64,000 nt of DNA from an uncultured Bacteroidales bacterium (GCA_963732435.1 CAVSZL010000018.1:24143-88142), one strand, 5' to 3'; positions 22,124 to 39,680 are shown, counted from the first letter of the stretch. The notes: generated from the sequence alone by a model not told the origin. Made by a program: numbers and translations.

Positions 22124-22212
22124 CCTGACACGGACGGTGCTATGAAAAACTTCCCGTTTCACAGGACAATCAGTCCCGATTTATAGGGAGACTCCCGTTA
22201 AGTTAATGCCAT
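22124..22212 (+). repeat. Composite attC-like repeat, copy 1 of 4
   Basis: CCTGACACGGACGGTGCTATGAAAAACTTCCCG...TCCCGATTTATAGGGAGACTCCCGTTA; homologous to 36386, 37305, 39575. Confidence 0.85.
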
Positions 22213-22301
22213 CGGGCGCCAGCCACCATGACAAATTCATCTGGAAAATGGTCTAGCCATAACGGCTTTTTCAAGATTTCTGAAAATAATATGACAATTA
22301 G

Positions 22302-22332
22302 TTCCCGTTTTGGGAATTAAGTAATATCTTTG
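22302..22332 (+). promoter_or_regulatory. Candidate higBA promoter/operator
   Basis: Palindrome TTCCC-GTTTT-GGGAA (22302-22316) followed by Bacteroidota -7 box TATCTTTG (22325-22332), just before higB. Confidence 0.55.
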
Positions 22333-22346
22333 TTACAGATAACTAA

Positions 22347-22646
22347 TTGATGGAGCGGATTTTTGCGAAAAGTACTCTAAAACTGTTTTGGGAGAAACAC
22401 TCTGATACTGAACAGTACTTGAAAACATGGTATGACACGGCCATGAACTCAGACTGGGAAACTCCCAATGATGTTATGAAGTCTTATGCAAATGCAAGTA
22501 TTTTAAAAGACAGCAGGATTGTTTTTAACCTCAAAGGCAATTCCTACAGACTAGTAGCAAAATTCAACTTTGAAAAACAATGGACCTTCATAAGATTCCT
22601 TGGGTCTCATGCTGACTATGATAAAATTGATGCAAATACGATTTAA
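22347..22646 (+). CDS. higB: HigB-type toxin
   Basis: RIFAKSTLKLFWEKH...WY..A....WETP...NASIL...RIVFNLKGNSYRLVAKFNF...FIRFLGSHADYDKI. Confidence 0.9.
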   Translation: MMERIFAKSTLKLFWEKHSDTEQYLKTWYDTAMNSDWETPNDVMKSYANASILKDSRIVFNLKGNSYRLVAKFNFEKQWTFIRFLGSHADYDKIDANTI

Positions 22647-22657
22647 AAAGAAAAACA

Positions 22658-23026
22658 ATGAATATAAAACTGATCAAAACAGAAGCAGATTACCAGACAG
22701 CTCTCAAGAGACTTGAGGAAATCTTTGACGCCAGGATCGGTACAATTGAATGTGATGAGGCTGACATACTCGGATTATTTATTGATGAATATGAAAAGAA
22801 ACACTTCCAGATAGAAGCTCCGGATCCTATTGAGGCGATAAAGATCAGAATGGAGGAAATGCAGCTTAAACAGGTAGATCTTGCGGATGTTCTTGGTGGA
22901 AAAAACAGGGTTTCTGAGGTTCTTAATCGTAAACGTAAATTAACCGTTGAGATGATTCGTAAGCTTACAAAAAGACTAAACCTTTCACCTGGACTTTTAA
23001 TCCGGGACTATAAACTTGCCGTATAA
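22658..23026 (+). CDS. higA: HigA-type antitoxin (XRE HTH)
   Basis: IKTEADYQTAL...PDPIEAIKIRME...KQVDL...KNRVSEVLNRKRKLTVEMIR; follows toxin. Confidence 0.9.
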   Translation: MNIKLIKTEADYQTALKRLEEIFDARIGTIECDEADILGLFIDEYEKKHFQIEAPDPIEAIKIRMEEMQLKQVDLADVLGGKNRVSEVLNRKRKLTVEMIRKLTKRLNLSPGLLIRDYKLAV

Positions 23027-23059
23027 AACAGTCATATTGAACTGACAAACTGAACTCAT

Positions 23060-23126
23060 CCTGACAATCGGACGGTTGGGGAAATTTACTTTTACTCGCT
23101 CAACAACTGGGCCGTTATACATAATT
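23060..23126 (+). repeat. Short attC-like element
   Basis: CCTGACAATCGGACGG (same left end as the composite family) ... GCCGTTATACATAATT. Confidence 0.6.
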
Positions 23127-23158
23127 AAAAAACCAAATTATTGAAAATTAGTTAAGAA

Positions 23159-24076
23159 ATGAAAATAATATCAATTGCAACATTAGTATTCTGTTTCAGT
23201 TTGATTTATGAAGCAAAAGGACAGAGTGAATATCCTCCGCTTATTGTTGGAGCAGAGGAAATAACATATAAAACGGTTGACAAAATCAAATTGAATTTAT
23301 GGATCTTTACTCCGGAAAATCATAAATCAACGAATAATGCCCCTGCCATTATATTTTTCTTCGGAGGTGGTTGGAATACAGGAAGTCCTGCTCAATTTGT
23401 AAAACATTGCGAATACCTGTCAGCGAGGGGAATGGTTGCTATAGTTGCAGACTACCGGGTTAAGAGCAGGCATGGTGTCCCTGCCAGTATGTGTGTCTCT
23501 GATGCTAAATCAGCAATCCGTTGGGTTCGCGGGAATGCGTCTCAATTGGGTATAGATGGGAATAGAATTGCTGCAGGAGGTGGTTCTGCAGGAGGGCATT
23601 TAGCAGCATCATGTGCCACTTTGCCAAAATTCGACGATGAAAATGAAGACAAATCAATCAGTTCAAAACCCAATGCTCTGGTGCTTTTTAATCCTGCTCT
23701 GGTGCTTGCCCCTGTTGATAATCAAAAAATGGAAATAAATGAAAAAATGGCCGGTTTGGAAGAAAGACTGGGAACAAAACCAGAGAACATATCACCTTAT
23801 CATAATATAGTTGGCACATTGCCGCCAACAATTATTTTTCACGGAACAGGCGATGAAACCGTGCCATTTGTAACCGTACAATTGTTTACAAAAAGGATGC
23901 ATGAGTCCGGCAATAAATGTACATTGGTTGCTTACGGGGGAGAGCCACATGGTTTCTTTAATTACGGCAAAAACTCAAATGCAGTATTCTTTGATACTTT
24001 ACACAAAATGGATGAATTTCTGGTTTCACTGGGCTACCTTAAAGCACCACCGGAGATAGTCATTTCTACCAATTAA
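23159..24076 (+). CDS. Exported alpha/beta hydrolase (acetyl-esterase/lipase-like)
   Basis: FFGGGW oxyanion motif, GGSAGG nucleophile, HGTGD...V, HGFF catalytic His. Confidence 0.9.
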   Translation: MKIISIATLVFCFSLIYEAKGQSEYPPLIVGAEEITYKTVDKIKLNLWIFTPENHKSTNNAPAIIFFFGGGWNTGSPAQFVKHCEYLSARGMVAIVADYRVKSRHGVPASMCVSDAKSAIRWVRGNASQLGIDGNRIAAGGGSAGGHLAASCATLPKFDDENEDKSISSKPNALVLFNPALVLAPVDNQKMEINEKMAGLEERLGTKPENISPYHNIVGTLPPTIIFHGTGDETVPFVTVQLFTKRMHESGNKCTLVAYGGEPHGFFNYGKNSNAVFFDTLHKMDEFLVSLGYLKAPPEIVISTN

Positions 24077-24169
24077 AGTAAAATTACAATTCTGAATGAT
24101 ACAAGCGATTTGTTTCCAGGGGCATATCCGGATAAACGGCCTGCAACAAATAAAAATAATGACAATAGT

Positions 24170-24304
24170 ATGAAAAGAAGATCTTTTGTACAGACAGTTG
24201 GATTATCCTCAGTTATGATGCCACTGGCTTTCAGGAAACCTCTGTATAAAAATGAAGGCAGTTTTTTCACCGTTACGAAGGTTAAGGGACGATCTTTCCT
24301 ATAG
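24170..24304 (+). pseudogene. N-terminal remnant of a Tat-signal exported protein
   Basis: MKRRSFVQTVGLSSV twin-arginine leader then GSFFTVTKVKGRS, stop after 44 aa. Confidence 0.4.
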
Positions 24305-24381
24305 TTCAATTGTCGATTTTCTGAATTCGAAAAATATTGAGATAAAAGGTAACCAGTTTGAAATGATTAAAAAAATATAGT

Positions 24382-25494
24382 ATGAATAATTCAGGAAAAA
24401 GATTAATGTCGCATTTAAGAAAATACATGCTATTTTATGTGGTACTTTTTAGTACTGCTGTACCGGTCGGTTTTATTAATGCCCAAAATCCGGATAGTCC
24501 GCATCTGAAAAATCTTGCCATCAAACACAATCTGTTAATTGGTGGTGCAACTGATTTGAATCATAATGACAGCAATGAAGAGCAATTAATTATTAATGAA
24601 TTCAGTATATTATCCAATGAAAACTGTCTTAAACCGAATAAGACACAACCATCCCGGAATGTATTTGATTTCAGGCAGTCCGATTACTTTGTCGGTTTTT
24701 GTAAGAAAAATAATATTGTTGCAAAAGGACATAAATTAATCGCACGGGACTTCTACTTGCCGAAATGGATGCTTGACCCCGGCTTAACCGATAAAGAGCT
24801 TCACGATATTTTAGTGGATCATATTAAAAATGTTATGGGGCGATACAGGCAGGGAAGTGAATATGGTGAGATAAAATACTGGGATGTCCTTAATGAAGTG
24901 ATTTCCGACGCCAAAATATATGAAAGTGTTTTTAAGAGGTTAGGAAAAAACAGTGACGGTGATTATAACTATTGGGAATTAGCTTTTCGTACCGCACGCG
25001 CCGTTGATCCGAATTGTGTATTGATCTGGACTGAGGATAATATAGAGTTTGATTATCCAAAGGCGGATAAGCTTTATGAGACCATAAAACGATTAAAGAC
25101 AAAAGGCGTACCTATAGATGCGGTGGGCTTTCAGTGTCATATTGGCTTCCATGGACAACCCGTTCCGGATTTTACAAAACTGGCAGAATACTTCAGGAAA
25201 TTTGCAGATTTGGGGCTTTATATTGCCATCACAGAGCTGGATGTGTCTGAAAAACTAAATCAGGTTGAAATTTACAAAAATATGATGCAGGTATGCCTTG
25301 ATCAACCAAAATGTATAAGTTGGAGCACCTGGAATGTTGTTGATAAGTACAGCTGGCGCAGAAATTTAAAAGATGCAGAAACTCCTTTGCTGTTTGATGA
25401 TAATTACCAGCCGAAATCAACATATTTTGGAGTACAGGAAATACTAAGAAAACCAAACATCAATTCTAAAAACAGGATTTTACCACATTATTAA
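24382..25494 (+). CDS. GH10 endo-1,4-beta-xylanase
   Basis: ENCLKP, KGHKL, WDVLNE (acid/base Glu), DAVGFQCH, ITELD (nucleophile), PLLFD..YQPK. Confidence 0.92.
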   Translation: MNNSGKRLMSHLRKYMLFYVVLFSTAVPVGFINAQNPDSPHLKNLAIKHNLLIGGATDLNHNDSNEEQLIINEFSILSNENCLKPNKTQPSRNVFDFRQSDYFVGFCKKNNIVAKGHKLIARDFYLPKWMLDPGLTDKELHDILVDHIKNVMGRYRQGSEYGEIKYWDVLNEVISDAKIYESVFKRLGKNSDGDYNYWELAFRTARAVDPNCVLIWTEDNIEFDYPKADKLYETIKRLKTKGVPIDAVGFQCHIGFHGQPVPDFTKLAEYFRKFADLGLYIAITELDVSEKLNQVEIYKNMMQVCLDQPKCISWSTWNVVDKYSWRRNLKDAETPLLFDDNYQPKSTYFGVQEILRKPNINSKNRILPHY

Positions 25495-25509
25495 ACCTGA
25501 AAGAATTAT

Positions 25510-25650
25510 ACGGTTGCTAAAACACTGACATAAAACATTGGAGGTTAAGTTGTTATTTAAGCATTCTGTTACATATCAGGTTCGGTGTAACCGAAAGAGA
25601 ATGTAGCAAGTAATCCACATAGATTTAATGCAGCCAACCGTTACCGTATG
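25510..25650 (+). repeat. Degenerate attC-like element
   Basis: ACGGTTGCTAAAAC ... CCAACCGTTACCG flanking the intergenic space. Confidence 0.45.
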
Positions 25651-25682
25651 CGAAAACACATTCTGCAAAAACATAAACTAAA

Positions 25683-26168
25683 TTGATAAATATGGACTTT
25701 ACACATATAACAAGCGGAATTTTACTGGGATTAGAAAAATGGATGCCAAAGCTTTCTGAATTACCCGAAGATCTGATTATGAATAAACGTAACACTCAGG
25801 GCAGAACGATCAAACAGATACTTGGACACATGGTTGATTCTGCTTCAAATAATACTCATCGGATTGTTCACTTACAGTATCAGGATAGTCCGCTTAAATT
25901 TCCGAATTATGCTGCAAATGGAAATAATGACAGGTGGATTGCAATCCAAAATTACCAGAATGAGAACTGGAATGATTTAATTCAGCATTGGAAGTATAGC
26001 CATTTACATTGGATTCATATTGTAAAAAATGTAAATCAGAATAAATTAGATAATGAGTGGATTTCAGAATCGAAATATGGCAGTATTTCGCTTCAGGACA
26101 TGATTACCGATTTTTTAAGACATTTTCATTTACATCTCGGAGAAATTCAGGAATTAACTGACAAATAG
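25683..26168 (+). CDS. DinB/YfiT-family protein
   Basis: RTIKQILGHMVDSASNN..R; W......H; D...HFHLHLGEI metal-binding His. Confidence 0.88.
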   Translation: MINMDFTHITSGILLGLEKWMPKLSELPEDLIMNKRNTQGRTIKQILGHMVDSASNNTHRIVHLQYQDSPLKFPNYAANGNNDRWIAIQNYQNENWNDLIQHWKYSHLHWIHIVKNVNQNKLDNEWISESKYGSISLQDMITDFLRHFHLHLGEIQELTDK

Positions 26169-26180
26169 ATAAAAATGCAC

Positions 26181-26417
26181 AACTGAGCAACAAGGTATAT
26201 ACAATAAGGCGTGATAGTAGTAAATTAAAGGGGGGTGTCCCTTTCCATTCTCCATTCTCAATTCTCAATTCTTTATTCTTCTGCCAGCCAGGGACCGTTT
26301 CATGATTTTTGAACGAAAAGGGAGGAAAGTATTAAGCATACAAAAAGTCCACAATAGTATCCAAATAGGTAAATTTTGCGTACTTTTTGCCCACATATAA
26401 CAAGTTGTGTGGTATTT
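26181..26417 (+). repeat. Degenerate long attC-like element
   Basis: GCAACAAGGTATATACAATAAGGCG ... CACATATAACAAGTTGTGTGGTATT; internal heptamer tandem CCATTCT/CAATTCT. Confidence 0.45.
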
Positions 26418-26463
26418 AATGAAAAAATGGAATTATGCGAAACTTAAGAAAAAGGAACAACCT

Positions 26464-27972
26464 ATGAAATTGAAAATATTGCTTATTATTTTTTTCTCAT
26501 TAACAATTACTGATGGTATTGCACAGAGGGATTACTCTGATTCCGATACAACAAAGGTAATTTTGCTGGGAACGGGCAATCCAAATCCATCTCCATCTCA
26601 ATCGGGTTGTTCAGTTGCTATCGTTGTAAATGATACTCCCTATATTGTTGATTTTGGCCCGGGATTAATTCGTCAGGCTGCAGCTATGAGTCCGCAATAT
26701 GGAGGGAATGAACAAAAAATAATGATATTGCATACTCTAAAAAGAGTATTTCCTTATTAGTCTGCATAGCCTAGTAGCCTTATCTATAAGAGTAGCTTAT
26801 TATGCATCAAGTGGCAGTTTCAATGATCCTTTTATCCCAAAGCATTCCAAAAAAACAGTATCCTCTTATGTGTCATTTCTTGAAAAACAGCAAGATGCAA
26901 AAGACTACATCTTTAAATTATTTGAAATGAATGATTTCGTGATCTTGTGCGAGAAGAACATCCAGAAATGACACAATACGATTTCTTATTGATCTGATAT
27001 CAGATGAGAGATTTAGATAGAGGAATGTCTTAGATGTTAAAACATATTAAACATGCTTTTCTTACCCATTTACATTTTGGCTGACCATAACAACCGGTAT
27101 AAACTATCCGGACCTTATTTTTACTCCCTGGGTAATGGGAAGAGACAAACCTCTTGAAGTATATGGTCCTGTATAAATGATATGACAAACCATAACTGAA
27201 AGCCTACGAAGAAGATATTCGATACCGTTTATTGGAATCTGAACCAACTAAGTAATCAGGGATGGCGGGTAAACATCATGAAATTACAGGGAAAGAAAGG
27301 CGGAGTTAACAATTACAAAGATGAAAATATCTAAAGTCAGATCAAAAACGAAGAAAGCCTTGGTAATAAGAACTTCGGCACGGAACCTGGCGACAAAAAT
27401 AAAATTAGGAGATACCTCCTGTGCCACATATATTATGAGGAAATACCCAGAAAAAGCTGCCAACGTATTGATAAATACTGTTAAAGTAAGTTTTGGAATT
27501 TCAAAACCGGGATCACTAATTTTTCACCAGCCAAAAAACTCCAATAAAAAGTGGAATATGGGACAATTCATTTGAAAAAATAGGAAATAATGCATTGGGA
27601 TTCCGTTTTACAACAGTCCATTTGGTGACGATGATTTTGATTTATATTTTACCGGATAAAATTATTGTAATATCAGGTGATGCTTCACCTTCAGAAAAAA
27701 TTACTGAATACGCTTCAGGAGCAGATATTCTGATTCATGAAGTCTATTACAAAAAAGCCTTTGATACGAAAACTGAATTATGGAAGAACTACCACGCACG
27801 TCATCATACATCAACAATTGAACTGGCTGACATTGCTGACAAAGCACAACCTAAATTGGTCGTATTATATCACATATTATTCTGGGGAGCCACTGATGAA
27901 GATATGATTAACGAAATTTCGACAAAATATAAGGGAAAAGTTATTGTTGCGAAAGACTTAGATATATATTAA
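26464..27972 (+). pseudogene. Disrupted MBL-fold metallo-hydrolase (RNase Z/AtsA-like)
   Basis: N-term ILLGTGNPNP...VDFGPG (26464-~26707); middle HAFLTHLH..DH, PWVMGRDKPLEVYGP (~27030-27290); C-term ISGDASP..GADILIHEV..HHTS..LYH (to 27972). Pieces are separated by foreign stretches and many indels. Confidence 0.8.
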
Positions 27973-27999
27973 ATGAAACCGTATGAAGCAATAGCAAAA

Positions 28000-28140
28000 C
28001 ACCACTCAACACTTGGAATAGTCTAATCGGGTTTAAGGGTTTGCGGGCGTTAGTAACACCCAAATAAGCTGGAGTAAACTGATAAGAAATCACTTCGAAA
28101 TCCCGCACAACACAATACCATCAAACGTTGGTTGCTATTT
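28000..28140 (+). repeat. attC-like element
   Basis: CACTCAACA ... GCGGG ... CCCGC ... AAACGTTGGTTGCTATTT (CAAC/GTTG ends, internal arms). Confidence 0.6.
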
Positions 28141-28159
28141 TTAGGAACATTATAAATGA

Positions 28160-28420
28160 TTGAAAATGAAATATTGTATTGTAATTTTAATTGGTATAGC
28201 TTTTTCTTCCCAATCATTAATTTCTTTCGGACAGGAATTAGAAAAACTAAATCGCATCAAATCTGCCAGAAGCCTGGTAGCTCTTTGGGATTTTAGAGAA
28301 GAGGAAGGACAACCGAGAAAAGCATTTGGTAAAGGAGAATACCCTTTAAGTGAATCTGACGGTACAATTGTACGCATCAACGATGGACCCTTGTCAGGTT
28401 TTTCGGCAAAATATATGTAA
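28160..28420 (+). pseudogene. Truncated exported protein (possible LamG/jelly-roll N-terminus)
   Basis: Signal peptide then LVALWDFREEEG; ends at 86 aa. Confidence 0.4.
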
Positions 28421-28438
28421 TATTGAGTATTATTAAAC

Positions 28439-30823
28439 ATGAAAACTATGAAAAGAACAGGCATTTATTTTAACGCGTTTGCCCTATTAACCATAGTAGG
28501 CTGTAATGAATCGAACCAGACTTTGGAAACAAAGTCATTGGGCTCAGACGGATTGGATCGCACTGTGCTTCCCATCAAAGAGCCAATTTATCCGGCAATC
28601 ACGGAGTTGGATGCCCGCAACGCAACAGCTCCCTCCCGATTTGAGGTGAAAGCGCCCGAAAAAGCGCCAAATGTTGTGGTTGTGCTAATTGACGACATTG
28701 GCTTTGGTCATTCCAGTGCATTTGGCGGTCCTATCAACATGCCCACCCTGGAGAAGCTTGCTGCCAATGGATTGAAATATAACCGGTTTCACACCACTGC
28801 ATTGAGCTCGCCAACCCGTACAGCGTTGCTCACGGGTTATAATCATCATTCCAATAATGCCGGGGCAATCATGGAAATAGGAACGGCCTTTCCGGGTAAC
28901 ACCGGAATTCGTCCGCAATCCATAACTCCCGTTGCTGAGGTGTTGAGATTAAACGGATACAGCACTGCTGCTTTTGGAAAATATCATGAAACTCCACCCT
29001 GGGAGGCTTCAGTATCCGGTCCGTATGACCGCTGGCCAACAGGTTCAGGCTTCGATAAATTTTATGGATTCATTGGTGGAGAAACCAATCAATGGCACCC
29101 TATGATATACGATGGAACCACCCGTGTATATCCTGATGTTGACGATCCAAACTATCACTTTACTAATGACATGACCGATCAGGCACTGGCATGGATGAAT
29201 ACCCAGCAGTCGCTCACACCCGATAAGCCTTTCTATATTTATTTTGCTACGGGTGCAACCCATGCTCCGCATCATGCTCCAAAGGAATATACTGATAAGT
29301 ACAGGGGGAAATTTTCTCAGGGCTGGGATAAAGTACGTGAAGAGACACTGGAAAGACAAAAAGCACTGGGTGTAGTCCCTCCAAATACGGTTCTGGCTCC
29401 CAAACCTGCCGACATCAAAGACTGGGACAAACTCACTTCCGATGAGAAAAAAGTGTTTGAAAGACAGATGGAAATATTCGCAGGTTTTGCCGAACACACA
29501 GATGATCAGGTAGGACGATTGATTGATGCCCTGGAAGCGCGTGGTGAATTAGACAATACTCTGATTTTCTACATTGTTGGCGATAATGGCTCCAGTGCAG
29601 AAGGTGGCATGCAGGGACTCTATAATGAGAATACATTTTTTAACGGTGTACCTGAAACCCTGGAGATGCAGCTGGCTAAGCTTAATGAGTTGGGAACTGA
29701 ACATACCTATAATCATTTTGCGGCAGGATGGGCCATTGCAGGCAATACTCCTTTCACCTGGGCAAAGCAGATTGCTTCCAATTTTGGAGGAACGCGCAAT
29801 GGTATGGTGACCCATTGGCCCGCAGGTCTCAAGTCAAAAGGAGAGGTACGCTCACAATTTCATCATGTAATTGATGTTGCGCCTACCATTTATGAGGCTG
29901 TGGGAGTACCCGCACCGAGAATGGTGAATGGTATTGAGCAGCGACCTATTGAAGGGGTAAGCATGGTTTATTCTTTCGACAATGCAGCAGCACCCGACAT
30001 GCGCAAAACACAATACTTTGAAATGACAGGCAACAGAGCAATTTATGACGATGGCTGGTTTGCGGCTACCATTCATCGTGCGCCCTGGGAAACACAACCG
30101 AGACGTGCATTATCAGATGATATTTGGGAGCTCTACAACATCAACGAAGATTTCAGCCTTGCCAGTAATCTTGCCGATAAAAATCCGGAGAAGCTGGAAG
30201 CGATGAAAAAGAAATTCATGGAAGAGGCTGTGAAATATAATGTACTGCCGATAGACGATCGCAGCATTGAACGCTTTGATCCGGCTATTGCAGGCCGCCC
30301 TGACCTTATGAACGGAAGGACCAAACTTACGTTGTATGAAGGAGCAACGGGTATTCCTGAAAATGCCTTTATCAATGTAAAAAATACTTCCCTCACCATT
30401 ACGGCAGATGTGGAGGTCCCGGTAAATGCCAGCGGAGTTATTGTATGTCAGGGTGGTGACTTTGGCGGGTGGACATTGTATATGACAGACGGAAAACCTG
30501 CTTATACGTACAATTGGGTGGGCCTTGAAAGTTATACAATATCTTCCACTCAGAAAGTTTCTCCCGGAAAACACACCATCACCTTTGATTTTGCATACGA
30601 AGGTGGACGCGGAGCCGGAGGTACCGGAATGCTTTCGCTGGATGGAAATAAAATCGGTGAAGGAAAAATTGCAAATACCAACGCGAACACATTTGGTATT
30701 GATGAGTCTGCCGATATAGGAACGGATGAAAACACTCCTGTAAACCCGGCCTATGCAAAAAAAGAAGATTTCACGGGTAAAATTCATTCTGTGACCATAG
30801 AAACAAAACCTGCAGGCAATTGA
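28439..30823 (+). CDS. Arylsulfatase (family S1), Ser-type, lipoprotein
   Basis: PNVVVVLIDD; TALSSPTRTALLTG (S-x-P-x-R); GYSTAAFGKYH; GDNG; lipobox IVGC. Confidence 0.93.
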   Translation: MKTMKRTGIYFNAFALLTIVGCNESNQTLETKSLGSDGLDRTVLPIKEPIYPAITELDARNATAPSRFEVKAPEKAPNVVVVLIDDIGFGHSSAFGGPINMPTLEKLAANGLKYNRFHTTALSSPTRTALLTGYNHHSNNAGAIMEIGTAFPGNTGIRPQSITPVAEVLRLNGYSTAAFGKYHETPPWEASVSGPYDRWPTGSGFDKFYGFIGGETNQWHPMIYDGTTRVYPDVDDPNYHFTNDMTDQALAWMNTQQSLTPDKPFYIYFATGATHAPHHAPKEYTDKYRGKFSQGWDKVREETLERQKALGVVPPNTVLAPKPADIKDWDKLTSDEKKVFERQMEIFAGFAEHTDDQVGRLIDALEARGELDNTLIFYIVGDNGSSAEGGMQGLYNENTFFNGVPETLEMQLAKLNELGTEHTYNHFAAGWAIAGNTPFTWAKQIASNFGGTRNGMVTHWPAGLKSKGEVRSQFHHVIDVAPTIYEAVGVPAPRMVNGIEQRPIEGVSMVYSFDNAAAPDMRKTQYFEMTGNRAIYDDGWFAATIHRAPWETQPRRALSDDIWELYNINEDFSLASNLADKNPEKLEAMKKKFMEEAVKYNVLPIDDRSIERFDPAIAGRPDLMNGRTKLTLYEGATGIPENAFINVKNTSLTITADVEVPVNASGVIVCQGGDFGGWTLYMTDGKPAYTYNWVGLESYTISSTQKVSPGKHTITFDFAYEGGRGAGGTGMLSLDGNKIGEGKIANTNANTFGIDESADIGTDENTPVNPAYAKKEDFTGKIHSVTIETKPAGN

Positions 30824-30861
30824 TGCTTGAAAAGCTTATGAATTAATTTATAAGCTGTAAC

Positions 30862-30937: not shown

Positions 30938-30976
30938 GTAAACAGACAACCCAATCAACAACATTTCATATAAGAA

Positions 30977-31546: not shown

Positions 31547-31673
31547 CAAAATGTTTGCGCAATGGTGTGGTGACGTGTAGGTTCATAGTGTTATTTTCCT
31601 TCAACGATTGGTCACATGGGACAAATACGTTTTCAAAAGCCCGCCACTGCTCAAAAACAACGTTTTGTGGTAT
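31538..31673 (+). repeat. attC-like element overlapping the upstream stop codon
   Basis: AACCGCTGACAAAATGTTTGCGCAATGGTG ... CCCGCCACTGCTCAAAAACAACGTTTTGTGGT; the two ends are imperfectly complementary. Confidence 0.7.
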
Positions 31674-31688
31674 AAAAAAAGAAACGAC

Positions 31689-32015: not shown

Positions 32016-32225
32016 AAATGAATTAAATGACCTGAATATGGAACTCAAAAAAATAAATCAGTCTTTTGGTCGTGATTGAAGATCCTGCCAGATAGCAACA
32101 AGGAACCGTCCCGACAGCAATCAGGAGTTAAGATATATAGACCGCTTCAACTTTCGTGTAAATTGACAGGAAAGTGCACGCAGTAGGCTACAATTCTTTT
32201 ATTAACCGCTGACTGTAATGAAGAA

Positions 32226-33173
32226 ATGAACGAAAAACAAATCATAGAATGGTTACTTAAAGGTGATGTTTCAATACAGTACCAGGGTTACCGTGATTTG
32301 CTTGGAACTGACAGAAAAGATTTACAAAACACAATTTCCAATGAAGGTTGGGGAAAACAATTCTTATCCAGAAGAAAATCAAATGGACATTGGGGAGATA
32401 AGTTTTATCAGCCCAAGTGGATTTCAACCCATTATACGCTTCTCGACCTTCGCAATTTAAATCTGAGCCCAAACAACAAACTTGTAAAAGAAACAATTGA
32501 TCAGGTTTTGATTACTTCAAAAGCTGAAGATGGGGGAATTCAACTGGGACCATCAACAACTAACCATAGTGATGTTTGTGTAAATGGAATGTTTCTAAAC
32601 TATGCATCTTATTTCAGGACACCTGAAAAGGAATTGCACTCGATTGTTGATAGTCTCCTTAATGAAATAATGCCTGATGGCGGATTCAATTGCAGAACGA
32701 TAAGAAGCGGAGCAAAACATAGTTCACTGCATACCACACTCTCGGTACTTGAAGGACTTCACGAGTTCAAAAAGTCGGGATACAAATATCGGTTAAATGA
32801 TATTTCAGGAGCCATAGAAAGTGCAGAAGAGTTTATTCTGATTCACCGATTTTTCCTCTCCGACAGAACAGGTGCAATCATTCGTAAGGAGTTTTTAAAT
32901 CTAACGTTTCCGGGTCGGTGGAAATATGATATCCTTAGAGCACTTGATTATTTTCAATTTGTTAATAGTAAATGGGATGATAGAATGAATGAGGCGATTG
33001 CCGTAATTCTTAAAAAAAGAAATAAAAACGGAACCTGGAATATGCAGGCAGCACATCCCGGCGAGTTGCACTTTGTAATGGAAATGGCAGGTAAACCAGG
33101 CAGATGGAATACCTTGAGAGCTTTACGGATATTGAAACATTTTAAAAAGATAAATAACTACAGACAGCAATAG
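32226..33173 (+). CDS. Prenyltransferase/squalene-oxidase-repeat-like hypothetical protein
   Basis: WLL.GD.SIQY, YQPKWISTHYTLLDL, DVCVNGM, DGGFNC, RWKYDILRALDY, RWNTLRALRIL. Confidence 0.7.
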   Translation: MNEKQIIEWLLKGDVSIQYQGYRDLLGTDRKDLQNTISNEGWGKQFLSRRKSNGHWGDKFYQPKWISTHYTLLDLRNLNLSPNNKLVKETIDQVLITSKAEDGGIQLGPSTTNHSDVCVNGMFLNYASYFRTPEKELHSIVDSLLNEIMPDGGFNCRTIRSGAKHSSLHTTLSVLEGLHEFKKSGYKYRLNDISGAIESAEEFILIHRFFLSDRTGAIIRKEFLNLTFPGRWKYDILRALDYFQFVNSKWDDRMNEAIAVILKKRNKNGTWNMQAAHPGELHFVMEMAGKPGRWNTLRALRILKHFKKINNYRQQ

Positions 33174-33219
33174 ATTTAGTGCATTAAAACGCACCATAGC
33201 CAGACCGTTGTGTACAATT
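33158..33219 (+). repeat. Short attC-like element overlapping the upstream stop
   Basis: ...CAGACAGCAATAGATTTAGTGC-ATTAAAAC-GCACCATAGCCAGACCGTTGTGTACAATT. Confidence 0.65.
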
Positions 33220-33229
33220 AAATTGAGAA

Positions 33230-33736
33230 GTGGTGAATTTGGAAGAAGTAATTCAGGCAACCTGGGAAAAGGTTAAAAACATAGATGACAAAGGGCTTTT
33301 GGCATCTTATATTCCTGAGTTGGTTAACGTTGATTCAGAAAGTTTTGGAGTACATATATCAACAATTGACCACACAAATTTTGGTATTGGTAATTACAGG
33401 GAAAGATTTTCGGTTCAGAGTATTGCAAAAGTACTTTCACTAAGCCTGGCATATAGTTTGCTTGGCGAGAATATCTGGACAAGAGTTGGAGTAGAACCGT
33501 CCGGAACATCATTTAATTCTCTGGTTCAGCTTGAAGCAGATAAAGGCATACCCCGGAATCCCTTTATAAATGCCGGAGCAATGGTTATTTCAGACATTCT
33601 GCTTAGCAATCTGGAAAACCCAAAAGAAGAATTTTTATCATTTATCAGAAACATATCCAATAATCCGGAATTAAATTATTCAGGTAAAATAGCTGCCTCA
33701 GAAAAAAGCGTGGGATTTCGAAATGTGGCATGCTAA
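33230..33736 (+). pseudogene. glsA: Glutaminase, 3'-truncated
   Basis: ASYIPEL, FSVQSIAKV (S-x-x-K), VGVEPSG..FN, PRNPFINAGA; stops at 168 aa, about half a typical ~300-aa glutaminase. Confidence 0.85.
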
Positions 33737-33825
33737 AAAACCCACTTCGCAGATATATTTCCCTGTTGACACAGGGTTGACACTTTGATAAAATAAATTT
33801 GATAAATTATTTAAAACATAAAGCA

Positions 33826-34305
33826 ATGACTAAGCCAATCTTTATTTCGATTATTTTCCTTCTTTCATTTGGATTTATTAACCAATCAGAAGGTCAAACT
33901 CTTTCTGCAAGTCAATCAGGATTAATACAAAGTCAGGTAGACTCAATATTTCAAAAAATGTTACTCCTTGCCGAAAATCTTGAATTTGATAAATTAAGCT
34001 CAGGTGTTAATGATATACATGCAGCAGGATTCATTTCAAATGGCAAATATTATGCTTCTTATTCTGCTTTGATTGATGATGTGAAATCATTTGCACAGGG
34101 AATAAACAAGCAAAATATTTCTATAAAAGAAAAAAGAATTACCGTTTTATCCGATAAAATAGTTCTTTTGACAGCTTCAGGAACCTCAAAAGCTATTATA
34201 AATGATGGAAGAGAATTGTCGGTTGATTTTCATTGGTCCTTTATATATGAAAAAATTGATAATAGTTGGAAAGTTATATACTCCCATCAATCAACTACAA
34301 GGTAA
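33826..34305 (+). CDS. Exported NTF2-like (SnoaL/DUF4440) protein
   Basis: Signal peptide; C-terminal W.FIYEKIDNSWKVIYSHQS; start moved to MTKP. Confidence 0.8.
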   Translation: MTKPIFISIIFLLSFGFINQSEGQTLSASQSGLIQSQVDSIFQKMLLLAENLEFDKLSSGVNDIHAAGFISNGKYYASYSALIDDVKSFAQGINKQNISIKEKRITVLSDKIVLLTASGTSKAIINDGRELSVDFHWSFIYEKIDNSWKVIYSHQSTTR

Positions 34306-34372
34306 TCAGTTATTGGACACTCAATGAAATAGAAAATTGAATTAAAACATAAAAATAAAAGAAGGAAATTCC

Positions 34373-34870
34373 ATGCAGAAAAAGTCTTTAGTGGTAATTG
34401 ACATTCAGAATGACATTACCAAAAACTACAAAGAAATCATTGACAATGTTAATCGGTCAATAGATTGGGCAGTGGAAAATGAAATTCATGTCGTTTACAT
34501 AAGGCATTATAACTTATCTGACGGCACAAGGACTTTCAAACCTGATACTCGTGGGTCTGAATTAGTTTCGGACATGAAATTGGTTTCCAAAAACATTTTT
34601 GAAAAATCCAAAGGCAACGCATTGACCAGCGAAGATTTTGCTGACTTTATCAGGAAAAATGAAATAAGCGAATTTTATATTACAGGAGCAGACGCCATTG
34701 CCTGCGTGAAATCAACCGTATTTAATATGTGCAAGGAAAACTACAAAGTTACAGTCTTATCAGATTGTATTACGAGTTATGATAAAAGGAAAATTGACGA
34801 AATGCTGAATTATTACGAAAAAAATGGCAGTAAAATAATTAATTTGAATGACTTGTTACATTCTAAATAA
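34373..34870 (+). CDS. Cysteine hydrolase / isochorismatase family
   Basis: LVVIDIQND, FEKSKGNA, ITGADAIACVKST. Confidence 0.9.
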   Translation: MQKKSLVVIDIQNDITKNYKEIIDNVNRSIDWAVENEIHVVYIRHYNLSDGTRTFKPDTRGSELVSDMKLVSKNIFEKSKGNALTSEDFADFIRKNEISEFYITGADAIACVKSTVFNMCKENYKVTVLSDCITSYDKRKIDEMLNYYEKNGSKIINLNDLLHSK

Positions 34871-34968
34871 AAATGCCAGCGGCTGGCAAGCGGTATAGCC
34901 AATAAGGGTTTAGCTTCGCTGAGCTCGTCCTTCGTCCTCGGTTGCCTTCGGCGAGCTCATGTCGAAGC
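34871..34968 (+). repeat. attC-like left end followed by a REP-like hairpin
   Basis: AAATGCCAGCGGCTGGCAAGCGGTATAG then GCTTCG..GAGCTC...GAGCTC..CGAAGC palindrome (34913-34968). Confidence 0.55.
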
Positions 34969-35001
34969 CAGCGGGAACAATCCTTTGACTAGATTTACAA
35001 G

Positions 35002-36159
35002 ATGAAACTTACACGTTTATTTAACGAATTTTTTACCAGCGAGAAAGCCGGAGGATTTATCCTAATTTTCGCGACTATATTATCGCTAGGACTTGCAAAC
35101 TCACCCCTGCAGACTGATTTTATTAAGTTTTGGCATTTCGATCTTGGAGGACAAAGTATTGTTCACTGGATCAACGATGGACTCATGGCAATATTCTTTC
35201 TTCTTATTTGTTTGGAGTTAGAACGTGAAATTTATATTGGTGAGTTATCAAACATTAAAAATGCATCACTACCAATATTTTGTGCATTTGGTGGTATGCT
35301 AGTACCCGCCGGAATATTTTTATTATTTAACTATGGTACGGATACTCAAGCGGGAGCAGGTATCCCGATGGCAACAGACATTGCATTTGCCATTGGCATC
35401 TTATCTCTCCTCGGTAATCGTGTCCCTTCTTCATTAAAAATATTTTTAATTGCCTTGTCAATTATTGATGATTTGGGGGCAATACTAGTTATCGCAATTT
35501 TTTATTCATCTACATTGTCATTTCTAAACCTATTCATTGCCCTTGGTATTTTTGGAATCCTGCTTATTCTGAACAGACTTAAAGTTCACAATTTGATTCC
35601 TTATTTAATTGGTGGTGTAGTAATGTGGTATTTTATGCAACATTCAGGTATTCACGCTACTACAACCGGAGTATTGCTGGCTTTCGCAGTTCCATTTAGT
35701 GATGGGAGCGAAAAATCGCCCTCATTTATTCTTCAACATCTATTACACAAACCTGTTGCATTCTTTATCCTGCCACTGTTTGCCCTCGCTAATACATGCA
35801 TACCCATTGACAATAATTTACATAGTATTATGACTCAAACATATAGTTTGGGAATTATTATTGGTCTGGTTCTTGGAAAACCCCTGGGAATTTGGCTCTT
35901 CTCATTTATTGCAGTCGGTTTGGGAATATCTGTATTACCTCCTGATTTAAAATGGAAAAACATAATCGGGACTGGAATATTAGGAGGAATCGGATTCACA
36001 ATGTCAATCTTTATTACACTACTTGCATTTGACGATCCAACAATTGTAAATTATTCAAAAATTGCTATCCTTCTTGCTTCTCTTATTGCTGGTACAGTTG
36101 GATTTATATGGCTAAAACTGACACTAAAGCCAGAAATAAGAGATGACGAATTACCTTGA
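35002..36159 (+). CDS. nhaA: Na+/H+ antiporter NhaA
   Basis: WINDGLMAIFF, IPMATDIAFA, SIIDDLGAI, SGIHAT, GIGFTMSIFI. Confidence 0.95.
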   Translation: MKLTRLFNEFFTSEKAGGFILIFATILSLGLANSPLQTDFIKFWHFDLGGQSIVHWINDGLMAIFFLLICLELEREIYIGELSNIKNASLPIFCAFGGMLVPAGIFLLFNYGTDTQAGAGIPMATDIAFAIGILSLLGNRVPSSLKIFLIALSIIDDLGAILVIAIFYSSTLSFLNLFIALGIFGILLILNRLKVHNLIPYLIGGVVMWYFMQHSGIHATTTGVLLAFAVPFSDGSEKSPSFILQHLLHKPVAFFILPLFALANTCIPIDNNLHSIMTQTYSLGIIIGLVLGKPLGIWLFSFIAVGLGISVLPPDLKWKNIIGTGILGGIGFTMSIFITLLAFDDPTIVNYSKIAILLASLIAGTVGFIWLKLTLKPEIRDDELP

Positions 36160-36213
36160 TAATAAAAAATGTCTGCCTGTAATGTATAAACGGTAATGCT
36201 TCCCTATTACATA

Positions 36214-36366
36214 ATGAGATATGGATTCTATGAAGGTCACACCGGATACCGAACTGATCCAATTTCAATATCATTCATTTTTGGACTTAAGAGTCTTGAA
36301 CAATTAGACAAAGACCTTGGAGGACAACTTTATAACGCCTTATTTAACCATTTCGTTTCACAATAA
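36214..36366 (+). CDS. Small ORF / gene remnant (50 aa)
   Basis: Not in the ORF track. MRYGFYEGHTGYRTDPISISFIFGLKSLEQLDKDLGGQLYNALFNHFVSQ*, lying between two attC-like ends. Confidence 0.4.
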   Translation: MRYGFYEGHTGYRTDPISISFIFGLKSLEQLDKDLGGQLYNALFNHFVSQ

Positions 36367-36385
36367 TACAAATAACAAAACTCAA

Positions 36386-36471
36386 CATAACACTGATGGT
36401 GCTATGAAAGACTTCCCGTCTTACGGGACAAGTAGTCCCGATTTATCGGAAGACTCCCGTTAGTCGCCATC
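36386..36471 (+). repeat. Composite attC-like repeat, copy 2 of 4
   Basis: CATAACACTGATGGTGCTATGAAAGACTTCCCGTCTTACGGGAC...TCCCGATTTATCGGAAGACTCCCGTTAGT. Confidence 0.85.
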
Positions 36472-36505
36472 TATCGTGCTCCCGAACAAATTAGTACAAC
36501 TCTAT

Positions 36506-37309
36506 ATGAATAAAAACTACCGGTTTCAAAATATCGTCCGATCGAGAATAGCAACCTTTGACATCTTTGATGTTGGTTTGCGCAAACATCATATAAATGC
36601 AATGCTTGAATTCGATGTCACAGAAAGCAGGGCAAAACTGCGAGACCTTAGAAAAAAAGGGACAGTTGTTTCATTTAATGCATGGCTTATCAAGGTTATC
36701 GGAAGTGTCCTGCAAAAACATCCGGAAGCAGCAGCATATTTCTACAACAAAAAAAGGCTCATAATCTTCAATGACATCAACGTTTCAATGATAGTAGAAA
36801 AGAAAATAGGAGATTCAAAAGTTCCGATCCCGCTCGTCATTGAAAGAACAAATGAAAAATCTGCTGAAGAAATAACTAAGGAAATAGAAAGTGCTAAAAG
36901 TCAGCAATTAAATCCTGATGACATTGTATTAAAAAAACAATCAAACACATATCAAAGATTTTATTACCACCTGCCGGGATTCCTCAGAAGACTTTTCTGG
37001 ATCTTACTGCTGAAAAATCCGAAAGCAGCTTACAAAACAATGGGGAATGTAGCAATAACTTCAATCGGGATGATTGGCAAAATTAATGGTTGGTTTATTC
37101 ACAAATCAGTTCATCCTGTTTCCTTTGGCATTGGATCCATCCTTAAAAAGCCTGTAGTCATTGACAATGAAATAAAGATCAGAGAGATTTTAAACATGAC
37201 CATTCTGGTTGACCATGATGTAATAGATGGTGCACAAATGGTTAGATTACTGGATGACCTGACAAACTACCTGGAAACCGGAAAAGATATAAATAACACG
37301 AATGCCTGA
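36506..37309 (+). CDS. Stand-alone 2-oxo-acid dehydrogenase E2 catalytic-domain protein
   Basis: SFNAWLIK, GNVAITSIG, DHDVIDGAQ (cf. DHRxxDG); no lipoyl domain; stop TGA inside the next repeat. Confidence 0.85.
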   Translation: MNKNYRFQNIVRSRIATFDIFDVGLRKHHINAMLEFDVTESRAKLRDLRKKGTVVSFNAWLIKVIGSVLQKHPEAAAYFYNKKRLIIFNDINVSMIVEKKIGDSKVPIPLVIERTNEKSAEEITKEIESAKSQQLNPDDIVLKKQSNTYQRFYYHLPGFLRRLFWILLLKNPKAAYKTMGNVAITSIGMIGKINGWFIHKSVHPVSFGIGSILKKPVVIDNEIKIREILNMTILVDHDVIDGAQMVRLLDDLTNYLETGKDINNTNA

Positions 37310-37409
37310 CACGGATGGTGCTATGAAAAACTCATCGTCTTATGGGACTACTTGTCCCGTGAAACGGGAAGTTGTTCCAATCTATCGGGAGACTCCCGTT
37401 AGAAATAAT
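37305..37409 (+). repeat. Composite attC-like repeat, copy 3 of 4
   Basis: GCCTGACACGGATGGTGCTATGAAAAACT...TCCCGTGAAACGGGA...TCCAATCTATCGGGAGACTCCCGTTAG. Confidence 0.85.
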
Positions 37410-37501
37410 TTATGCTGTTATCTGCCTGACAGATATTTTCTTACATTTCTTATCTTTATAGTACAAATTCAATTTACAGCTTCGATAATATTAATAGTAT
37501 T

Positions 37502-38833
37502 ATGGAAACAAGAAAGTTAAACAGGCGTGATTTCGTGACTAAATCATCGATCGGTTTAGTCGGTGTTGGGGCAGGACTTATTAGTAATGAACCAATTAAT
37601 CAGAATTCTTATCTTAAAAACATCCAGGAACAAACCAGAATAAAAGAATATAGAGCACTGGGGCGAACAGGTTTTAAAGTTTCGGATATTGGGTGTGGTA
37701 CAATAAGCATTTCCAATGAAAATGTTTTAAAATCAATTCTGACAGCAGGAGTAAATTTTATTGATACAGCTGATGCTTATAGTAATGGGAATAATGAAAT
37801 AATGGTTGGAAGAGCCATTAAAGACTTCAATAGGAGTTCTTTATTTATTAACACAAAAATATCTGTCTCGGAAAGTGACACCAAAGATAGTATTGTATTA
37901 CGGGCAAGAAAGTGTCTGGAAAGACTAGATACTGACTATCTGGATGGACTGATGCTCTGGAATGTTAAGTCGGTAAATGAGACTAAGAATAAAGCTTTTC
38001 ATCAGGCTGTTAAACAATTGAAAAGTGAGGGCCGGGTTAAATTTTGCGGTGTTTCATGCCACGGATCAAATTATGTCGATGAGCCAAAAGAAACCATGGA
38101 CAAGATAATCGGCACAGCAGCTGAGAGTGGTCGATTTGATTTAGTGATGTTTGTATATAATTATGTTCAACAGAAGATGGGTGAAAATATTCTGAAGGCG
38201 TGCGCAAAAAAGAATATTGGTACTACACTCATGAAGACAGATCCCTTTGGAGGATATTTCTTGAATATTGTAGAACTTGTTAACAATTCTAAAAGGGATA
38301 ATAAAACTATACCTGAGAATCAGCAGAAAGTATATGATAAGATTTTAAAAAAACAGGCAGAAGCAAAACCTTTTTTGCAAAAATACGGCTATTCAAACAA
38401 TGATACCTTTAGAGAGGCAGCTATTGGTTTTGGATTAAATAATCAATCTGTGAATTCTGTCCTTATAACATTCAGGAATTTCAATGATGTAAATGATTAT
38501 ATTAATTTGTCGGGGTCCAGACTGACGGAGCAAAATCTATCCATGATTGATTCTTTAAAAAATACATTCGGGAGTTTATATTGCCGCCATGCGTGTGGAC
38601 AATGTGAAAATCTTTGCCCCCATGCTGTGCCAATAAACACAATTATGAGATATAACCATTATTTTATGGCACAATCCCGCGAGAAATATTCTATCAAAAA
38701 ATATTTAAAATTATCTGGAGAAAAAGCTGACAAATGCTCAGATTGCGAGGGATTCTGTGAGCAGGCATGTCCGCATAATGTATCAATACAAGCTCTTTTA
38801 TCCATTGCTCACCAAAATTTAAGTCTTTCATAG
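37502..38833 (+). CDS. Aldo/keto reductase with Tat leader and C-terminal 4Fe-4S domain
   Basis: LNRRDFV leader; RALGRTGFKVSDIG, FIDTADAY; CRHACGQCENLCP and CSDCEGFCEQACP. Confidence 0.9.
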   Translation: METRKLNRRDFVTKSSIGLVGVGAGLISNEPINQNSYLKNIQEQTRIKEYRALGRTGFKVSDIGCGTISISNENVLKSILTAGVNFIDTADAYSNGNNEIMVGRAIKDFNRSSLFINTKISVSESDTKDSIVLRARKCLERLDTDYLDGLMLWNVKSVNETKNKAFHQAVKQLKSEGRVKFCGVSCHGSNYVDEPKETMDKIIGTAAESGRFDLVMFVYNYVQQKMGENILKACAKKNIGTTLMKTDPFGGYFLNIVELVNNSKRDNKTIPENQQKVYDKILKKQAEAKPFLQKYGYSNNDTFREAAIGFGLNNQSVNSVLITFRNFNDVNDYINLSGSRLTEQNLSMIDSLKNTFGSLYCRHACGQCENLCPHAVPINTIMRYNHYFMAQSREKYSIKKYLKLSGEKADKCSDCEGFCEQACPHNVSIQALLSIAHQNLSLS

Positions 38834-39007
38834 GTAATTGGAATTATTATAAGAGTATATCCTTACGATTGTATATGCAATTAGTAAATATATTGTGACT
38901 GAATACAAACTTTTATTTCATCAATTTTTTGACACCGGACTGTAACCTGACATCATTAAATAAATTTCCTGATTTAACTGTTGTATACAAAACTAAATTT
39001 GTCAATT

Positions 39008-39511
39008 ATGAAAAAATTTCTGGTTATTCTATTTACAATTGCAATCGTTGGTTGTACCAATCAGGCAAACGATTTGACTGAAGCAGAAAAAGAATCCATT
39101 ATCAAAGAAGTTAAACAGGACTTTTATGCTATGGTGGAGGCATGCAATACTGCAGATCTTAACAATGCCCTCAAACTTTATTGGAACTCGCCGGAATTCC
39201 TGGGGATTGGATCTGACGGATCAATAGTTGATTACCCGCAATTTAAAAAGGCTAACGAAGAATATTTTGGATCGATTTCTTCTCAGAAATTTGTTACTGT
39301 AAAAGAGAGTTTCAAATTTCTTGATGTCAATCATATTCTTTCATCATGGCAAGGAACAAATGAGGCGATACTAAAATCTGGAGAAAAAATGACCTTTAGT
39401 TCTTTTGGAGTCACTAGCATATTCAAAAAAGTTGATGGCAGTTGGAAAATAATCTATTTTCATGAGTCTGGAATTCCTCCAACAGTGACTAATTCCGAAG
39501 CAGACAATTAG
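39008..39511 (+). CDS. NTF2-like (SnoaL/DUF4440) lipoprotein
   Basis: Lipobox IVGC; FKKVDGSWKIIYFHES. Confidence 0.8.
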   Translation: MKKFLVILFTIAIVGCTNQANDLTEAEKESIIKEVKQDFYAMVEACNTADLNNALKLYWNSPEFLGIGSDGSIVDYPQFKKANEEYFGSISSQKFVTVKESFKFLDVNHILSSWQGTNEAILKSGEKMTFSSFGVTSIFKKVDGSWKIIYFHESGIPPTVTNSEADN

Positions 39512-39574
39512 TTGAATTCACTCTTTACACCAGGAATATTACTGACTATTAAGAAATAATAAAATACACCTAAT

Positions 39575-39680
39575 CCTGACATGAACGGGGCAATGAAAAA
39601 CTTCCCATCTTACGGGTCTACTTGTCCCGTGAAACGGGAAGTTGTTCCGATTTATCGGGAGACTCACATTATCAGTAATT
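39575..39680 (+). repeat. Composite attC-like repeat, copy 4 of 4
   Basis: CCTGACATGAACGGGGCAATGAAAAACTTCCCATCTTACGGG...TCCCGTGAAACGGGA...TCCGATTTATCGGGAGACTC. Confidence 0.8.

Follow-up and report, generated by a model that had tools for sequence, protein, structure and literature searches.

A miniature inverted-repeat transposable element (MITE) tied to an IS110-family insertion sequence (IS) has been described in Pseudomonas putida KT2440, where MITEPpu9 is linked to ISPpu9 (PMC12288879). Here we analyse a repeat of similar build that occurs four times in a 64,000-nt stretch of DNA from an uncultured Bacteroidales bacterium (GCA_963732435.1, CAVSZL010000018.1:24143-88142; the whole stretch is referred to below as the window). 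We consider it likely that each repeat is a transposase-less, MITE-like relic made from the ends of two nested insertion sequences, an IS1182-family element inside an IS110-family element, and that it spread as one derivative. Like MITEPpu9, the repeat is short, lacks a transposase gene, has ends resembling the left and right ends of an IS110 element, occurs as solo chromosomal copies and may have been moved in trans, as is thought for MITEPpu9; in both, insertion is site- and orientation-specific and only a dinucleotide is conserved at the junctions. Unlike MITEPpu9, which carries the small RNA gene ssr9 and sits in repetitive extragenic palindromic (REP) sequences, it is free of such a gene, its interior consists of IS1182 inverted repeats, its IS110 left end is reduced to 4 nt plus the core, and the partner IS is absent from the assembly.

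Two further groups of elements invite comparison. The inner part of the repeat resembles IS1182-family MITEs, being an internal-deletion derivative of the left and right inverted repeats (IRL and IRR) with hairpin-forming ends; it differs from them in never occurring alone, always lying inside IS110 tips, and in having flanks that follow the IS110 target rather than that of IS1182 (..GCCGT/TAG.., the slash marking the insertion point). Members of the IS1111 group home to the ends of other mobile elements: IS4321 and IS5075 to the inverted repeats of the Tn21 family, and the IS1111-attC group to integron attC sites. The repeat shares with them the oriented association of an IS110/IS1111-family element with another mobile element's end and a nested, recombination-site-like appearance. 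Here the relation is reversed, with a DDE element (IS1182) inside an IS110 tip, as the direct CCGT repeat and the outer IS110 target flank argue.

Copies of the repeat

The assembly (label G000) is a 4.8-Mb draft of 19 contigs, 92% complete, and the window corresponds to C18:24143-88142. The original prediction, made from the sequence of the window, had reported four repeat copies; all were present, on the + strand, and a repeat finder placed them in one family. Its left limits stood, while its right limits overshot by 9-12 nt into unrelated flank. With refined limits, the copies are 77-97 nt long and non-coding:

22124-22200, + strand: copy 1 (c1), two hairpins; 2 flank nt, core TG, reversed IS110 right-end tip 22126-22148; H1 (assigned to the IS1182 IRL hairpin) 22149-22167; H3 (assigned to the IRR hairpin) plus tip AGACTC 22173-22194; CCGT + TA 22195-22200
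36386-36462, + strand: copy 2 (c2), two hairpins; IS110 right-end tip 36388-36410; H1 36411-36429; H3 36435-36455; tip AGACTCCCGTTA 36451-36462
37305-37401, + strand: copy 3 (c3), three hairpins; IS110 right-end tip 37307-37329; H1 37330-37348; H2 37354-37372; H3 37374-37394; tip 37390-37401
39575-39671, + strand: copy 4 (c4), three hairpins; IS110 right-end tip 39577-39599; H1 39600-39618; H2 39624-39642; H3 39644-39664; tip AGACTCACATTA 39660-39671

A profile hidden Markov model (HMM) built from the four window copies recovered them at E = 7e-35 to 1e-23, so the resemblance is not due to chance. Searching the whole assembly with it revealed a small family only, of ~8-10 members. Outside the window it matched, in full or in part:

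C8:280539-280623: composite copy
C8:291008-291073: composite copy
C9:184991-185054: composite copy
C9:184255-184312: composite copy
C6:1317910-1317953: right module only, at a contig end
C9:187145-187184: right module only (C9b)

In total, eight composite copies were identified on three contigs. Their flanks are unrelated, their internal structure is common to all, and pairwise identity among the copies is now 60-83%.

Comparison of the shell with IS110-family ends

When copy 3 was searched against 60 related genomes, the left arm alone was matched, in seven genomes of the same genus. There it forms the terminal sequence of a 1.57-1.73-kb element, whose 356-aa protein contains PF01548 and PF02371 and matches NF033542 ('IS110 family RNA-guided transposase') at 204 bits (cut-off 140). 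Alignment of six to seven copies of this element from four genomes placed its right homology limit at ..CCGTGTTA (...TGCTTTTCATAGCACCATCCGTGTTA) and its left one at (C)TAACGGCCCGG (i.e. (C)TAACGGCCCGGC...); copies free of an insert end ...GCCGGGCCGT-TA. The left arm of the window repeats is the right-end tip of this element, its final ~25 nt, on the opposite strand, with 95-100% identity over 21-22 nt; on the + strand of the window the reverse-complemented tip (~23 nt) reads ACACGGATGGTGCTATGAAAA. The junctions are T(A/G) on the left and TA on the right, as expected of an IS110 core dinucleotide. The parent thus has the DEDD recombinase, the core dinucleotide at both junctions and a shared left-flank pattern, A-rich...CC(T/A)A.(A)CC. 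Judging by these alignments, the shell of the repeat is formed by the two tips of an IS110-family element and not by a pair of attC arms.

Two other assignments were rejected. The sole IS110-family gene of this genome (C9:341577-341999) has no similarity to the repeat and was discarded as its parent. The CTAACGG at the right border was at one point taken for a diverged IS110 left end; this was wrong. BLAST of the copies against full IS110 elements matched the right-end tip only. The interior therefore had to come from elsewhere, which led to the second IS. An Rfam search with one full IS110 copy (E<=1) gave no match, and a by-eye look for guide-like segments varying with the flanks in the left non-coding region of IS110 (~360-420 nt) gave inconsistent results.

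Comparison of the interior with IS1182-family ends

Pattern scans for the right module found matches in one uncultured Rikenellaceae metagenome-assembled genome and in two metagenome contigs. On one of these contigs (L091) the right module follows a 523-codon open frame; its 517-aa product, scanned from the first ATG, contains DUF772 and DDE_Tnp_1_6 and matches NF033551 ('IS1182 family transposase') at 337.5 bits (cut-off 270). The IS1182 element is carried by 12 of the 41 genomes searched. Aligning ten full copies revealed terminal inverted repeats of 17 nt, CAGACTGTCTAATAACC and GGTTATTAGACAGACTG, which agree with each other at 16 of the 17 positions. The NF033551 transposase is that of the parent in a metagenome contig, while the inverted repeats and a 4-bp CCGT duplication are those of full-length copies from relatives; what remains of the element in the window copies is the inverted repeats only.

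A subset of IS1182 copies carries a ~20-nt hairpin 6 nt inside the terminal repeat. Its presence in the left repeat is independent of that in the right: L096 has it on the left only, L091 on the right only, and most copies have neither. In the left repeat of L096 (G010:C43) it reads CAGACT-CCCGATAAATCGGGACAAGT-TATCTAAAAACC; the right form, GGTTTTGAGACGACTTGTCCCGATTTATCGGG-AGACTC, is found in L091, L092 and L066, as well as in the two right-module-only places of this genome, C9b and C6. We identify H1 with the left hairpin-bearing IS1182 repeat and H3 + AGACTC with the right form, on sequence grounds; the hairpins and GGGAGACTC singled out by the original prediction are thus the terminal inverted repeats, in their hairpin-bearing form, of an IS1182-family element. 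The hairpin itself could have originated as a nested mini-insertion or as a palindromic extension at the element's end. We had also listed C9b, C6 and L066 as a 'type B', longer derivatives of IS110; this was wrong, and they are the 3' end of the IS1182 element.

The count of two palindromes in copies 1-2 (H1, H3) and three in copies 3-4 (H1, H2, H3) was confirmed, and alignment of the copies revealed that the unit number changes by one whole step. Copies 3 and 4 have 21 additional nt (TACTTGTCCCGTGAAACGGGA, H2 plus spacer; 37349-37369 on the + strand in c3), which read as an inverted copy of H1 plus spacer and account for the step from two hairpins to three. The proposal that the repeat grows by addition of ~15-bp units holds in so far as the IS1182 hairpin acts as an add-on to either repeat; the units are not REP units. 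Some of the quoted palindromes are imperfect in single copies (copy 1 has, for instance, TCCCGTTTCACAGGA, and copy 3 TCATCGTCTTATGGGA), and differences between copies break hairpin pairs without compensation. We therefore regard them as decaying DNA repeats, not as a conserved RNA or DNA fold.

Similar hairpins were seen elsewhere in the genome. Upstream of tRNA-Val(TAC), at C9:503860-504090, the first 21 nt of the tRNA (GGGGGTTTAGCTCAGCTGGTT) occur in two tandem repeats, each followed by a 57-nt insert whose opening sequence is one common hairpin, TCCCGATAAATCGGGAC. An identical 24-mer, GGAGCCTGTCCCGATTTATCGGGA, is present ~75 nt away from tRNA-Pro, at C6:625599. Thus, the hairpin unit occurs also outside IS ends. 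Unrelated to the repeat are a TCCCGC....GCGGGA family at C1:139879, C1:231897, C5:79609 and C7:158680 (AACCTGTCATCCCGA-TCCCGCTTTAGCGGGA-GAGGGATCTCCTTCT) and a local hairpin series at C6:1198725-1199387 (..TTGCTTCG-TCCCGC....GCGGGA-CTCGCAATGAC..).

Position of IS1182 within IS110

In 8 of the 10 full-length IS1182 copies the IS110 left end lies directly upstream (..GCCGGGCCGT; ...TTTATTGCCGGGCCGT or ...AAACCGCCGGGCCGT) and CCGT-TA downstream. These nested copies are L093, L105, L094, L118, L114, L097 and L108 (genomes G001, G008, G018, G007 and G010) and the metagenome contig L091. G018 has a tandem pair, with L095 as its downstream copy and GACAGACTG-CCGT-CAGACTGTC as the junction. With an IS110 left end before it and CCGT-TA after it, IS1182 therefore interrupts the IS110 left tip 4 nt from its end and is bracketed by a 4-bp direct duplication. 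It follows that in the CCGT + TA of the repeat, CCGT is both the IS1182 target duplication and the terminal 4 nt of the left end of IS110, and TA is the IS110 core.

DNA beyond CCGT-TA keeps the G-n-(T/G)-G-(G/C)-C-A tendency seen in the flanks of insert-free IS110 copies. The opposite nesting, with IS110 inside the left repeat of IS1182, was rejected: the CCGT repeat is direct and not inverted, and the outer right flank keeps the IS110 target pattern. We conclude from this arrangement of sequences that IS1182 is the guest in IS110. Two IS1182 copies located outside IS110 (L096 and L098) also occupy ..GCCGT/TAG..-like sites, which argues for a target preference of IS1182. Its recurrent position could reflect either homing to the IS110-made junction or co-mobilisation of the pair as one unit.

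Reconstruction and spread of the composite

We assembled a reference from literal pieces of relatives' elements: the IS110 right-end tip of G004, the hairpin-bearing left repeat of G010, the hairpin-bearing right repeat of a metagenome contig and the CCGTTAG of the same contig. The four joined pieces matched c2 at 71 of 76 aligned positions and c1 at 68 of 77 (identity 88-93%). The window repeat is therefore the full composite, IS110::IS1182, seen in the relatives, minus the interiors of both elements. On the + strand each copy reads, in order, T(A/G) core, reversed IS110 right tip, IS1182 IRL (H1), IRR (H3 + AGACTC) and CCGT + TA. The junction between right-end tip and IRL, GA(A/T/G)A(A/G)(A/G)CTTCCC (GAAAA/ACTTCCC), is common to all eight copies. 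A single deletion junction throughout indicates that one derivative arose once and then multiplied. As expected of a MITE, the ends match autonomous IS (IS110 right tip and left tip, IS1182 IRL and IRR) and there are several dispersed copies. The data show what the repeat is made of, how the two IS are nested, that the junction is shared and that the left flanks are alike.

The order of events and mobilisation in trans we infer as follows. IS1182 would have entered the IS110 left tip 4 nt from its end, and an internal deletion would have removed both transposase genes. The derivative would then have reached eight or more sites in this lineage, most likely driven in trans by a recombinase of IS110 type with its guide RNA, and copies 3 and 4 would later have acquired the inverted H1 duplicate. 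Mobilisation by an IS110 recombinase is suggested because whole copies moved together and landed in the orientation and flank pattern of full IS110 elements; since the IS110 tips moved with them, IS110 machinery is a likelier motor than the IS1182 transposase. The copies are probably inactive fossils now, as they are only 60-83% identical and the cognate transposase is not in the assembly.

The flank pattern was evaluated with a weight matrix built from relatives' IS110 left flanks only, taking all intergenic 20-mers of this genome as the null set. The fraction of the null scoring at least as high as the left flank was 1e-5 for c1, 9e-5 for c4, 6e-4 for c3, 0.012 for c2 and 0.018 for C8a. Right flanks fit weakly (0.007-0.05 in 5 of 7). 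A short repeat containing TTGACACCGGACTGT was noticed at 38909-38943 and 43389-43423 of the window. In G012 (L009/L071) the motif of this repeat, TTGACACCGGACTTTT, is found ~30 nt ahead of the right end of IS110, and related GACAGTTTTAAAATTA motifs precede other IS110 copies. The TTGACACCGGACTGT-type motif may be part of a preferred IS110 landing region.

Several observations weigh against this reconstruction. Neither a cognate IS110 transposase nor a cognate IS1182 transposase was found in this draft; contig C6 ends inside an IS1182 right end, and parent copies may therefore have been lost in assembly. The IS110 left side survives as CCGT + TA only, 6 nt, and the left-flank pattern may alternatively point to an element reaching a few nt further than we have drawn it. 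The composite in full, searched with a covariance model, was not found in any of 60 other related species-representative genomes, leaving no independent lineage. The closest relatives are ~80% identical at the protein level, and among them no orthologous pair of a filled and an empty site was found. Finally, target preference accounts only partly for the gene-end position and the clustering of the eight copies.

Other searches for insertion sites gave little. No unoccupied multi-copy target sites were found in this genome, a look-up through the identity of a flanking protein gave no usable contig, and in 40 relatives there was no orthologue of the methyltransferase gene that precedes c1. Orthologues of the gene at 36476-37309 lack the element in G004 and keep a decayed left arm 3' of the stop in G008 and G030; the downstream DNA is not homologous.

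Genomic context of the copies

Each of the eight composite copies has the stop of a co-oriented gene 0-250 nt upstream, and the copies are clustered. Their same facing relative to the upstream gene can be explained by oriented, sequence-specific insertion, as in the full elements of G004 and G010. In the window, c1, which is on the minus strand in IS110 orientation, begins 15 nt past the stop of a methyltransferase-TPR gene (21069-22109), c2 lies between nhaA (35002-36159) and a 2-oxoacid_dh-like gene, the core TG of c3 is part of the TGA stop codon of the gene at 36476-37309, and the right limit of c4 is 61 nt upstream of a phzF-like ATG. Successive copies are 14,262, 919 and 2,270 nt apart, with ~17, one and two genes between them. 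A loose pattern for the shell only, CTGACA..CCGTTA, was uninformative except for one candidate:

23061-23117, + strand: candidate fifth relic, IS110-derived only, with no IS1182 part (CTGACAATCGGACGG...CAACAACTGGGCCGTTA), from a by-eye comparison with relatives' IS110 left ends made with no statistics

Its right end equals the IS110 left tip of the relatives (..GGGCCGT+TA), and it lies between higA and an esterase gene.

The neighbourhood in the window is accessory in character: HigB/HigA, an esterase, a GH10 enzyme, an open reading frame (ORF) of sulfatase size (judged by size only), a 2-oxoacid_dh-like acyltransferase, an aldo-keto reductase and PhzF. Three short ORFs on the same strand (26407-26760, 27321-27575 and 27595-27972) look like pieces of one gene, and 26407-27972 may be a broken gene inside this accessory stretch. 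Near the copies on C8 and C9 are genes whose products we take, from their N-terminal motifs, to be TIR-like and MazF-like. Between the two C8 copies, C8:280668-290456 holds four large genes with products beginning MAHDVFLSYSS.. or ..YDIFISYRQK, which we likewise assume to be TIR-like; this may be a defence-type island.

The RND/MFP genes, phzF and nhaA stand side by side in the relative G008. Here, MFP and phzF are separated by 19.2 kb (20578-39732), a stretch that holds all four copies and the candidate relic. At its left edge, which like the rest is absent between MFP and phzF in G008, the sequence at 20847-20872 (CTGACGGGGCGGTGTATTGGTAAGG) resembles the IS110 left end of G004 (CTGACGGCTCGGTGGTATAGTTAGG) in an orientation opposite to that of the other relics; the match is weak and could be chance. 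The gene at 36476-37309 has different neighbours in each of 11 relatives.

IS110 loci have been reported in a 2026 preprint to grow by repeated local insertion and to tolerate half-matching ends (10.64898/2026.08.14.744561). The 19.2-kb cluster could in principle be the skeleton of such an expanded IS110 locus, now decayed, and would have lengthened through successive RNA-guided insertions. Pairs of mini-ends, one a right-end and the other a left-end tip, would bracket accessory genes movable as circles, forming an integron-like platform in which a bridge-RNA recombinase replaces IntI, and IS1182 would home to each IS110-made junction. The adjacency in G008, the changing neighbours of 36476-37309 and the decayed left arms allow a decayed, cargo-carrying IS110 locus and do not show one; we regard this larger scenario as unlikely.

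Alternative explanations

By whatever route they arose, the copies might now have a host function as signals, in RNA or DNA, at the ends of genes (3'-untranslated hairpins, attenuators or protein-binding sites) kept by selection. Their uniform placement within ~250 nt of an upstream co-oriented gene is in line with this, as are the decayed left arms retained past the stop in G008 and G030, and c2 and c3 fold better than shuffled sequence (z = -3.5 for both). In contrast, the folds of c1 and c4 do not surpass those of shuffled sequence (z = -0.4 and -1.2), the hairpins lack a downstream U-tract, and hairpin-pair changes go uncompensated. An Rfam search of the window at the gathering threshold found one tRNA only, with no match in the repeats. 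The strand bias requires no host function, being accounted for by the orientation-specific insertion of IS110, and we find selection for such signals improbable.

We give even less credence to the idea that each copy decayed independently from a full IS110::IS1182 composite at its own site. Full composites are common in the genus, and this genome also contains partial IS1182 ends (C9b, C6) and the candidate IS110-only relic at 23061-23117. Yet the junctions GAAAA/ACTTCCC and GGGAC-AAGTA-GTCCC are both common to all eight copies, and eight separate deletions would not yield them.

It is very hard to maintain that the repeats are attC-like sites of an integron or of a cluster of attC sites lacking an integrase (CALIN), with the genes between them exchanged by IntI as cassettes. 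There are real likenesses: integron attC sites are imperfect palindromes of 60-140 nt located 3' of co-oriented genes with ..AAC / GTT.. borders, and the copies here follow genes in one orientation, bear outer letters ..TAAC...GTTA.., have a one-strand neighbourhood of HigBA and unrelated accessory genes, and include next to them a gene, 36476-37309, with ever-changing neighbours. However, the 265-bit cut-off of the integron integrase model TIGR02249 was not reached in this genome or in 36 relatives, and the matches skip the IntI-specific insert. The best match here (C12:412431-413243, 102 + 88 bits) falls into two pieces skipping model positions ~180-238 and lies on another contig than the array. 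Single-strand DNA folds of both strands of the four copies gave local hairpins only (z from -0.05 to -3.6), with no conserved closing stem, no pairing of R and L boxes and no complementarity between the arms beyond TAAC/GTTA (4 nt). The spacings of 14.3, 0.9 and 2.3 kb are irregular and not cassette-like. Each segment of the repeat is explained by IS110 and IS1182 ends, TAAC/GTTA being the IS110 core TA with two tip letters on either side. The attC-like shell of the original prediction was thus not borne out.

Just as implausible is a spread of the repeats as REP palindromes or bacterial interspersed mosaic elements by a REP-associated tyrosine transposase (RAYT, a Y1 transposase), with the hairpins as REP units: the short GC-rich palindromes do vary in number and alternate in orientation (H1 and H2 are inverted), the genome has 11 Y1_Tnp genes, and an H3-like hairpin occurs alone three times, near tRNA genes, but the family has ~8-10 copies in 4.8 Mb (the H3-type hairpin ~8), the 900 nt around each of the 11 Y1_Tnp genes hold neither such a palindrome nor an HMM match, TCCCG-N4-7-CGGGA is found only 36 times in the genome, for the most part in other repeats, and the hairpins sit inside IS1182 inverted repeats. 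The inner units therefore did not prove to be REP-like, nor were they found alone beside a RAYT/TnpA-REP gene. Of the modular hybrid of cassette site and REP element first put forward, the layered, modular build remains, with a shell drawn from recombination-site ends and units differing by a whole step; the attC and REP identities do not. Shell and inner units essentially occur together as a fixed MITE with no integron link, a pattern with which the original prediction had declared itself incompatible.

Significance

A tempting false lead, that of an integron or REP system, is replaced by a concrete anatomy that can be checked. We claim no new kind of system; the type of selfish DNA is known, and the chimera of two families is unusual. 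A MITE can thus be a chimera of two IS families, and annotation pipelines that rely on inverted repeats only or on attC folds will misread such elements. Most of the IS1182 copies examined in this genus are located in the last 4 nt of an IS110 element, as if one transposon were homing to the junction that the other creates. If 6 nt of the left end suffice for mobilisation, the repeats would bear on the minimal donor requirement of bridge-RNA recombinases, a question also raised by the work on expanding IS110 loci (10.64898/2026.08.14.744561).

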